The position numbers and the translations under genes were made by a program. From positions 132,060,001 to 132,124,000 of the forward strand of contig OZ024742.1 in the NCBI GenBank assembly GCA_964016885.1: a DNA stretch of 64,000 bases, in the 5' to 3' direction. The notes beneath the pieces were generated by a model, which was not told the origin of the DNA, ran no database searches, and saw only the letters and a program-made list of their open reading frames with translations. Origin of the DNA: Eledone cirrhosa (taxonomy: Eukaryota). Shown here piece by piece: positions 47,270 through 50,648 of this stretch (the first letter of the stretch is position 1; each line of letters starts with the position of its first letter).

Positions 47270-49576
47270 TTAAACCTTATTTAATGTTGGTCTATATTTT
47301 TGAATAAACATATTTTCCTTATTTATTCGCATTTGTTCTGTTGTATTGTTAGCGCAAAGGTAAAATGGGAAGACTTGGAATTTGGGTGTCATATTACTTG
47401 CGCAAATGTCTAGATGTGCACTTAGTGGTATCTGTCTCGTGGTTGGATCTCGTAATTGTTGGCGATGAACTGTCATTCTGTTTCTGAGTGTGAGTTTAGT
47501 TTGTCCTATATAATCTTCATTGCATCCTTTACATTTAATGGCATAAACTAGATTTTTTGATGAGCAAGTGAAGTGATCTTTTACAGTAAAATTTTGTCCT
47601 GATTTAAATGTATACGTGTTGCCTTCAATGAGGTGAGTGCAGGTTCCACAATTAGAGCGACCACATTTTTTGATACTTGGTTGTGGGTTTGTGGTAGGTA
47701 ATTTGGCATTGGTGAGTAATGTTTTCAGTGATTTTGGTTGTCTTTTGCTTTTGATTATTTTGTGTGTTTCAAGGGCTTTTTTCATTCTTGGGTCTTGTTT
47801 CAGTAGTGGGATGTTCTTGTGAATAGTGTTGTAAGCTTCCGCATTTCTTGGGTTGTATGTTGAGATATATGATAGAATATTGGACGTAACTTGATTTTGT
47901 TTCTGTTTTCGTAATTCATCAATGCCTATTGCTTTAGGTTTTTCTATTCCATTATTTATTAGTAATAGTGGGTACTCTCTCTCGAGTAGAATTTCCTTTA
48001 ATGCTTGAAGTCTTTTATTTCGCGTTTCATAATTGGAGACAATTGTGCAAATTCTTCTTGCTAGGTTAAAAGGAATGTTCGTCTTCGTGTGCTTTGGATG
48101 GTTGGAGGTGAATAGCAGATATTGTTTGGAATCTGTTGGTTTGTAGTGTATGTCAGTTTCGATATTTGTGTCTTTTTTTGTGATTAAGATGTCCAGAAAT
48201 GGGAGTTGATCTTGGCTGTATTCCATTGTGAATTGGATGTGGTTATTGATGCCGTTTATTAAGTTTTTGAAATCCTTCAGTTGGTCGAGTGTGTGGGACC
48301 AAAGAATGAGGCAATCATCCAAGTAGCGTTTCCAATTCTCTGATAAATATTTGTGGATGTTCAATCCGTATTTTGATTTGGACTGTTCATATATCTGGAC
48401 TTCTAAGTATGCCATGATTAAGTTGGCATTAGTTGGAGCGGCTTTTGTACCCATCGCAGTCCCCGATATTTGCTTGTAAGTATTGCCATCGAAATCAAAA
48501 AAGTTGTTCTGTAGGATGAATTTTAATCCCTCGGTGATGAAGCTTTTTTCTATTCTGTCAGGTATCTCATTGGGATATTTCTCTAGCCAGAATCCTATTG
48601 CTTCTAGTCCGTATTGGTGTGGGATCGTTGTGTAGAGATTCACTACATCGAAAGACACAATAATAGTGTCGTTGTTGACATGTTTGGGGAGGTGGTTTAA
48701 GAGGTCCAGATCGTCTCTTACAAGGCTTGGTATGTGTTTCAGTATTGGTTTCAGTAGTATGTCTATAAAGTTGCTCAATCTGTGTGTTTCACATTGTGGG
48801 CCCGCTACAATTGGTCTTAATTTAAGGTCTGTGGGGTATTGTGTGTTCACGCAGGCTGAGGTGGATTGTTTACAGGCATCGTTGATTATTTTACATTTGT
48901 TGATCTTCGGAAATCCGTAAAGGTTGCTGGTTTTGTATTCAAAATTTGTTAAATAATCGCGTTCCTTTTTAGTTAGGTCTTCCTGGTATCGATAAATCAG
49001 TGTGTTTAATTTGGTCATTATTTTTGATTGCTGGTAGTTTTTTACTCTTTCATAGTAATTAGTATTTTGTAAGAGAGAGAACATAGAATTTTTATATTTT
49101 TCAGCCTCCATAATGACAACAGTACTTCCCTTGTCCGCTTCCTTAATTACAATGTCCGTATTGTTTTTTAGTTCATGGATAATCTCCTATTCCCTTCGAC
49201 TTGTGTTGGGTTTGAGTTTTGGTTGCGGCAGTTCATGGTATGGGAAGGTAGCTATGTGGTCACAACATTTTTCCAGAACTCTGTTTCTACCTTTTGTTGG
49301 GTTGTAGCTGCTTTTATTCCGTACAATTGATTCGTCGTTATTCTCCCTGTCAAAGAATTCCTCTGTGAGACGTAATTTTCTACAGAAGTGTGAGATATCG
49401 TCATTTATCTCGTTGGGGTTAGGGTATTGTGGTGTTGGTGTGAATTTCAGACCTTTGGAGAGAATTTTTACTTGTTGGGCTGAGAGGTTTGTATTTGAAA
49501 TGTTAATTATTTTCGGTTTTTCAAAATCGGTTTGTGCCACCGGGTGTCGTGGGTCCTGTAGCCTTGGTCTAAAAAA
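47270..49576 (-). pseudogene. PLE RT + GIY-YIG polyprotein with one in-frame stop at 49187-49189
   Basis: IINISN..LSKGLKFTPTP, ADKGSTVVIM, LRPIVAG, SFDVVNLYTTIP, GTAMG, RYLDD, CGRSNCGTC, NLVYAIKCKGC..YIGQT, RMTVH..H, P.LN. Confidence 0.95.
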
Positions 49577-50648
49577 TGATTTTTCTGGAATGTTTTTTCA
49601 TTGGTATTATTATATCTAATGGTATTTTCTCTGTTGTTGTGTGGTCTTGTATAGAAGTTTCGGACGTATTGAGGTTCGGTTTGTTGATTGTCCGGGTTGT
49701 AGATTTGGTTCCTTTGTGTGGGTTGGGATCTACGGTTTTGGAACAGGCTCTGTGTGGGCAGGGGTCTACGGTTTTGGAATAGGTTTTGTGTGGGTTGTGA
49801 TCTGCGGATCAGGTCCTGCCTTGTGTTCGAGGATCTTTGGTTTTTGTTAGTAGGGTTATAGTTTTGTCTATGGTTTCTGGGATTATCGTTATAGTTTTGC
49901 TGGGGGTATGTTGGACGTTTTGTTACTTTTTTGTTATTTGTTGTGCATGTGGTGTGTGAGTTTTAGTTTGTTTTAAAAATGGGTTACCTGTATGTTGTTC
50001 ATTTTTGAAGTCCATTTCGTAGTTGTTGAACGAGGTCGCGTTTTTTTCCCATCGCTGGAGGGATGTTAGTTCTTCATCCTCACAGTTTTCTTTCCAAAGT
50101 TTTAGGGTGTTTTTGTAGAGTAGGCCTTCAGAGTGCTTTGAGATTTCTGTGTCCATCTGTTGGTCGAGTGACTTGAATTTTTCTTCGTTGGAGTTGGCTC
50201 TTAATGGCAACAGTTCTATTTCTGTTTTAAATTTTTCCAATGCCATCTTTTCCCTAAGTCTTTGTTGGTTTTCTGGTTCATTCGGGATGGGTTTTATTTG
50301 GAGTTTTTTGGGGAGGATGATTGGGGTAGAGTTTAGCCACTTTTCATATATGTCTGCCTTGCCATTATTTTTTATGAGATTCCAAAGGGCGAATTTGCGG
50401 GCTGTTAGCTTTTGAGTCCATATGTTGATTAGGGTGTTTTTCACTGAGTGGACATCTTGTAGATTGGGTTCTAACGGTTGTTCAAGCTTTTGGAGCATTG
50501 CTGTTTCAATGGTTTCGATTAGCATAGTTAATACTGGAGTAATATTGTATTTTCTGTTTCTTCGTGGGGTCCTTTTTTTATAGATGTTTATTTGGTCCAC
50601 TTTGTTGGTCAAAATTGAGAGTTTAGAGGAAATCTCTTTGAGTTCATT
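49507..50648 (-). CDS. PLE ORF1 in two frames (50648-49923 and 49962-49507): charged helical domain then N/Q/R/P-rich tail
   Basis: Open from the (TA)n junction (NELKEISSKLSILTNKVDQI...). A second open stretch of about 150 codons ends ...KNHFLDQGYRTHDTRWHKPILKNRK* and overlaps the RT frame. Confidence 0.7.

Follow-up and report, generated by a model that had tools for sequence, protein, structure and literature searches.

A conserved slippery heptamer between ORF1 and the reverse transcriptase-endonuclease frame of Penelope-like elements in Eledone cirrhosa suggests programmed -1 frameshifting

A 64,000-nucleotide stretch of the Eledone cirrhosa genome (assembly GCA_964016885.1, contig OZ024742.1, positions 132,060,001 to 132,124,000; here referred to as the window) carries on its minus strand a single copy of an endonuclease-bearing (EN+) Penelope-like element (PLE). 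In this element, the frame for reverse transcriptase (RT) and endonuclease (EN) overlaps the end of an upstream open reading frame (ORF1) in the -1 phase, and the overlap holds a U_UUU_UUA heptamer that is read in ORF1 phase. The two-frame layout and the phased site are direct observations, as is the conservation of the site in other copies, and on the strength of that conservation we consider it very probable that the RT-EN frame is reached by programmed -1 frameshifting at the heptamer. Ribosomes would slip back one base on U_UUU_UUA where it overlaps the AUG-less RT-EN frame. The slip itself and the ratio of its products are likely rather than observed; the majority product would be a 400-amino-acid (aa) helical ORF1 protein and the minority product an ORF1-RT-EN fusion of ~1,150 aa. 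The two frames and their junction are arranged in the window as follows.

49507..50645, minus strand: ORF1 remnant, lacking an AUG and broken near 49933 (400 aa in intact copies)
49598..49600, minus strand: TGA 5' of the heptamer, shutting the RT-EN frame
49570..49576, minus strand: slippery heptamer U_UUU_UUA in ORF1 phase (Phe-Leu)
49536..49562, minus strand: weak stem predicted by RNA folding, GCUAC at +8 and GUGGC at +30
49537..49539, minus strand: UGG (Trp), ORF1 codon 11 past the site, where many relatives have a stop
49507..49509, minus strand: ORF1 stop TAA, codon 21 past the site, overlapping the conserved PKIIN codons of ORF2
47270..49597, minus strand: ORF2 (RT-EN), in the -1 phase of ORF1; intact copies have 775 codons

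Across the heptamer, the window reads CAT TTT TTA GAC in ORF1 phase. The original prediction, made from the letters of the window, had placed a TTTTTTA in ORF1 phase at 49576-49570 of the minus strand, an RT-EN frame at -1 that is shut by the TGA at 49600-49598, and an ORF1 stop about 60 nt past the heptamer, and the sequence bears out each of these positions and phases, the stop being TAA at 49509-49507, 60 nt past the heptamer. It also bears out the claim that the -1 frame has no AUG until 49111, which is codon 163 and lies after the IINIS, KGLKFTPTP and DKG motifs. The window copy itself is dead: its ORF1 has lost the initial ~50 nt, including the AUG, the ORF1 frame is broken near 49933, and its ORF2 contains an in-frame TAG at 49189-49187. 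Given this state of the copy, we first asked whether the junction, too, results from damage.

A search pattern with anchors flanking the T run on either side gave 268 matches in the 3.0-Gb genome; the reversed control gave none. The in-phase T6A and the -1 layout were kept in 91 of the 100 listed matches of this family, here called family A (counted by eye). Sorted by length, these 100 comprised 92 of standard length (90 with T6A intact), one with an in-frame triplet duplication, six with 1 additional nt and one that was shorter. Family A is young and present at high copy number, with 99% identity among 40 scored genome matches and copies scattered over many contigs. Of 30 family A loci chosen by an RT-core query, 17 cover the junction and 13 do not, and T6 was present in all 17. 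Four copies (L069 and L071-L073) are intact, with 409 and 775 codons open in the two frames and an ORF1 of 400 aa from its AUG. In the youngest family A cluster (24 rows), every junction has the standard length. Variation per position among 56 young copies was too small to reveal selection, and truncated copies probably account for the long branches seen in the family A tree. The T6A and -1 layout conserved across family A copies rules out a lesion specific to one copy: the two-frame junction is the normal state of the family and not decay.

Four sister families (B to E), found in the same genome with distant ORF1 queries, have an ORF2 44-58% identical to that of family A, and all four carry an in-phase TTTTTTA where the frames overlap at -1. 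Heptamer and phase are kept not only among genomic copies but also in these related families. In the five family representatives, T6A occurs once per ~3.6-kb body and always at the junction, and its position is therefore more than chance. T6 was found at 28 of 32 fetched junctions in family C, 10 of 10 in family D and 2 of 2 in family E. Family B has an unstable poly-C run past the slippery site; among the 100 listed of its 170 matches, 48 have the modal length, and by phase 60 are at -1, 18 are fused and 22 are at +1. In L137-L156, which belong to this family, the C7 run after the site grows to ~28 C in many copies, and one extra base fuses ORF1 and ORF2 into a frame of up to 1,181 codons.

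Queries with ORF1 against metagenome and viral contigs gave no matches; an RT query did yield loci there, 80 from metagenomes and 17 from genome bins. Nine of these had an ORF1 profile match, and their junctions hold T6A in seven cases (L237, L238, L242-L245 and L248) and T6G in two (L239 and L317). Two EN-lacking two-ORF RT relatives, L267:2805 and L268:1214, have T6A and A6C heptamers, respectively, and an ORF1 stop on codon 11; their ORF1s fall outside this ORF1 profile. Animal-type retroelements also turned up in bacterial genome bins under bacterial names (L317-L333; P0166, P0191, P0195 and P0211), most likely as host contamination.

The imprint of the heptamer was also sought at the protein level. 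The protein family of ORF1 has no name and comprises 515 clusters at E values up to 0.001; 154 homologues were retrieved, 74 of them full-length (340-500 aa). A Phe-Leu pair (FL) lies within the last 45 aa in 62 of the 74, compared with 3 for the preceding 45 aa and a mean of 6.4 (maximum, 15) in shuffles. In four homologues (P0013, P0040, P0070 and P0147), Phe-Arg or Phe-Ser stands in place of Phe-Leu 10-11 residues from the end, and these may be mutated copies or use a different shift site. Another homologue, P0128, is 609 aa long with a C-terminus like the RT-EN linker region and is possibly an internally deleted fusion. The structural model of ORF1 has a helical N-terminus, a long-helix core (residues ~83-250; pLDDT > 90) and a disordered tail rich in Asn, Gln and Arg. 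Searches with ORF1, including a comparison with PDB, returned no Pfam family, no significant fold match and no capsid match, only generic coiled-coil and helical-bundle matches. Its language-model neighbors are Gag-like with scores of 0.83 or less, which we treat as a lead only. By analogy with other retroelement ORF1 proteins, it may bind RNA and oligomerize.

Several observations weigh against frameshifting at the heptamer. The six family A matches with 1 additional nt have fused frames, and 18 of the 100 listed family B matches are fused by the variable poly-C run, some of them open at 1,138-1,181 codons (these open copies were selected for long frames). One close RT relative, L303, has neither an ORF1 match nor a junction heptamer. 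Terminal FL is absent from 12 of the 74 full-length ORF1 homologues, and FL in a protein does not prove the underlying codons. The original prediction had named, as the outcome that would speak against it, intact copies forming one continuous ORF through an extra T; none of the six longer family A copies is intact over both ORFs.

A different reading of the same letters is that TTTTTTAG is a 3' splice site and that splicing of an intron connects the RT frame with an upstream AUG or a portion of ORF1, without any slip. T6AG is indeed read in all five families, introns are known in PLEs (Fig. 1 legend of PMC8557442), and in 44 of the 74 homologues FL is followed by a residue with a G-starting codon. 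This explanation is nevertheless improbable, since in 19 homologue tails the residue after FL is incompatible with AG, four DNA junctions have no AG (T6G in L239 and L317, T6AT in L248 and L262), the CAG-type equivalent FS[GEDAV] occurs in only 2 homologues, and a simple consensus scan of the five families found no donor-like site in the required phase. Among the rows listed, four sequence runs of unknown kind contained no indel at the T run and no GT-AG joint ending at the site, and they are uninformative on expression and splicing.

It is very improbable that the two-frame form is dead or a helper, with rare fused-ORF copies as the active masters or with polymerase slippage on the T run restoring the frame in RNA. 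T7 copies of family A and the open fused frames in families B, C and D would suit such a scheme. The youngest family A cluster, however, is entirely of standard length, and the four family B copies with C8 are not a lineage; they account for four changes on a tree of 18 rows, a pattern that suggests independent slips after insertion or assembly errors. Nor are there fused homologues among the best 120 of 678 RT-EN matches, none of which is longer than 803 aa (up to 1344 was permitted), and polymerase slippage would leave the conserved phase of FL without sense. A search aimed at longer fused ORF1 homologues also found none, which is weak evidence. Independent translation of ORF2 by reinitiation, leaky scanning or a non-AUG start is hardly credible, because the many RT-EN homologues annotated with their own start near IINLS owe it to gene finders obliged to choose one, the AUG 12 codons into the -1 frame of family B has no counterpart in families A and D (no AUG for 155-165 codons, beyond conserved motifs), and the conserved heptamer would go unexplained.

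Programmed -1 frameshifting is usually pictured with a stable stem-loop or pseudoknot 5-9 nt behind the slippery site, and the original prediction had assigned this role to a GCUAC/GUGGC stem. That stem is the predicted fold, but an HIV-like stimulator role did not hold up: folded on the intact copy L073 it reaches -7.8 kcal/mol (z of -0.7 versus shuffles), and families C and E have no stem in the 60 nt past the site. Across the five families, folds of the 40-60 nt past the site had z values from -0.7 to +1.1; family B folds differently, and families C and E are nearly unpaired within 60 nt, at ~0 kcal/mol. No conserved stem or H-type pseudoknot was found; the candidates vary between families. 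These folds make a fixed 3' RNA structure an improbable stimulator.

We then considered the distance from the heptamer to the ORF1 stop. A terminal FL or FF is present in 82 of the 110 homologues between 250 and 560 aa long, and in these 82 ORF1 never stops before codon 11 past the pair, stops on codon 11 in 24 and has Trp on codon 11 in 7. The ten residues between FL or FF and a codon-11 stop share no common motif. When 14 DNA junctions were shuffled with the -1 frame kept open, the stop fell earlier in 54% and on codon 11 in 3%. The class with a spacing of 10-11 residues accounts for 12 changes on the FastTree tree, at least 7 of them forced by strong branches. A codon-11 stop is found in the EN-lacking L267 as well, and one codon later in L262, which is EN+ with an unrelated ORF1. 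The clade of the window has UGG as codon 11 (families A and B, L237 and 7 homologues), with the stop for the most part at codon 20-21.

In E. coli reporters, -1 slips by a trailing ribosome 8-10 codons behind become more frequent when the leading one stalls at a stop (PMC6815119). Yeast disomes at stops leave footprints of 58 and 61 nt, corresponding to spacings of 30 and 33 nt, and the trailing ribosome can shift from the wider to the tighter spacing (PMC7784341). The 33 nt from UUA to the stop would place the last, impeded step of a trailing ribosome on the slippery site. Within the frameshifting model, it is a serious possibility, if short of probable, that translocation on the heptamer is blocked by a ribosome that pauses or terminates 11 codons further on, or in this clade by a two-ribosome queue from the codon-21 stop. 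Taken as a whole, and tentatively, we propose from the spacing pattern that a widespread EN+ PLE lineage may use structure-free -1 frameshifting in which the stimulator is another ribosome, held at a stop or a UGG pause one collided-ribosome length past U_UUU_UUA.

Several observations count against this proposal of a ribosome queue. In 54 of the 82 tails the stop comes later than codon 12, and the stop of the window lies at codon 21, where it coincides with the PKIIN codons of ORF2 that also dictate it. Trp at codon 11 is mostly limited to a single clade, and the spacing classes group by descent. L237, for its part, folds into a strong stem (z of -4.6). A nearby stop can also help in another way, as in SARS-CoV-2, where it allows the pseudoknot to refold (as given in part of PMC8168617). 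If frameshifting occurs, intrinsic slipperiness of U6A combined with weak family-specific stems is almost as probable as a queue, and a long-range or protein stimulator would be rather unlikely.

The remaining parts of the window copy, which is flanked by (TA)n/(CA)n microsatellites, identify the element.

46000..50648, minus strand: single EN+ Penelope-like element copy of family A, 5'-truncated, placed by sequence (96.6% identical to L073)
48272..48715, minus strand: RT core, Pfam RVT_1, E of 2e-6, slightly below the curated cutoff
47639..47665, minus strand: CX4CX2C linker motif between RT and EN, of Neptune/Nematis type, found by sequence (motif as defined in the available part of PMC8557442)
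47282..47554, minus strand: C-terminal GIY-YIG endonuclease, E of 1e-6, over the cutoff
46000..47269, minus strand: 3' untranslated part, which reappears upstream as a pseudo-long terminal repeat (pseudo-LTR) in tandem copies

With its RT, CX4CX2C linker (CGRSNCGTC in the window), C-terminal GIY-YIG domain and pseudo-LTR tandems, the element is an EN+ PLE. The linker motif in its general form, CX2-5CXXC, is present in 98 of 98 long RT-EN homologues; the element also has the DKG and GxKF motifs. The original prediction had called the element Neptune-like, and these motifs agree with that name, but the linker is common to Nematis and so not unique to Neptune; Neptune itself is paraphyletic in the part of PMC8557442 that treats it. 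The window copy is 96.6% identical to L073 over 4684 nt. The pseudo-LTR of L073 is a direct repeat of 1858 nt (99.9% identical), and L071 has direct and inverted repeats, as in the partial tandems and inverted 5'-truncated segments of EN+ PLEs. One 5'-truncated copy, L037, starts exactly at the slippery site, at a (TA)n joint with TA microhomology. Elsewhere in the window, 38518-38869 on the plus strand, beside microsatellites, is an older fragment from the 3' end of this element or a relative (87.7% over 358 nt). Within the 3' untranslated part, 46750-47110 holds a sequence imperfectly repeated three times, with (CA)n/(TA)n; the number of repeats differs among copies. No hammerhead was found by Rfam in 45000-53000 or by a simple core pattern in L073, searches that minimal hammerheads can escape.

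Canonical EN+ PLEs are termed single-ORF by Craig et al. (2021) in the available text of PMC8557442, whereas the intact copies described here have two frames. The original prediction had taken the single-ORF description as established; it stands as the canonical one, but the Fig. 1 legend of the same paper, on animal PLE types, mentions that a frameshift with a pseudoknot can separate ORF1. The novelty implied for a PLE ORF1 frameshift was accordingly overstated, as this legend precedes it. A fish Neptune with two nonoverlapping ORFs and no frameshift is described in part of PMC12602865. The available portions of PMC3846280, PMC6431247, PMC5408684, PMC7998251, PMC12602865, PMC6515669, PMC11167929, PMC4209133, PMC7618472 and PMC7544508 contain no PLE slippery site, and our literature search found none described for EN+ PLEs beyond the Craig legend, although Arkhipova 2017 and Gladyshev 2007 may describe one. 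From its distribution, the -1 frameshift site is in all likelihood real and ancient, and it is a variant of an arrangement already outlined in the literature.

For a large group of EN+ PLEs, the two-frame arrangement revises the single-ORF description, and they gain a previously unannotated ORF1 protein family and a prediction of their true RT-EN protein. Specialists could be surprised by the probable absence of an RNA stimulator together with a stop spaced one ribosome away. The sequence-free 11-codon spacing bears on whether nature uses ribosome collisions to program frameshifts, and it comes with many natural variants. If the collision reading is true, RT-EN output would depend on ribosome load, and these elements would offer a conserved example from nature, in eukaryotes, of frameshifting programmed by collisions.

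Frameshifts between a coiled-coil ORF1 and RT have been reported for Athena/Terminon elements. Those elements lack EN and are telomeric, whereas here GIY-YIG is present and copies lie on many contigs; the EN-lacking RT relative L267 is alike in having T6A with a stop on codon 11. The two-ORF PLEs in the legend of Craig et al. (PMC8557442) likewise have a coiled-coil-like ORF1 before the RT frame and a frameshift between them, but this element differs in its C-terminal GIY-YIG EN, its microsatellite setting and its lack of a conserved stem or pseudoknot. It resembles the Neptune/Nematis PLEs with a C-terminal EN in its RT, CX2-5CXXC linker, GIY-YIG, GxKF, DKG and pseudo-LTR tandems. Those PLEs are described as single-ORF in the available literature, whereas here ORF1 is separate and without a Pfam or PDB match, and after KIHK this RT contains an insertion of ~24 aa with no counterpart in the three Neptune rows of the PMC8557442 supplement (compared by eye). 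As the original prediction had stated, the heptamer U_UUU_UUA is that of HIV-1 gag-pol (per the relevant part of PMC7618472), and the logic of a structural protein followed by an enzyme is also alike; the differences are that no stable conserved stem-loop is present here and that the ORF1 model consists of long helices with no capsid match. The E. coli collision reporters of Smith et al. (2019) (PMC6815119) are alike in that their stop follows the heptamer by one ribosome length and no RNA stimulator is present. That system is an engineered reporter with a peak at 9 codons, and the elements described here would represent a natural, conserved eukaryotic use of the same principle at 11 codons.
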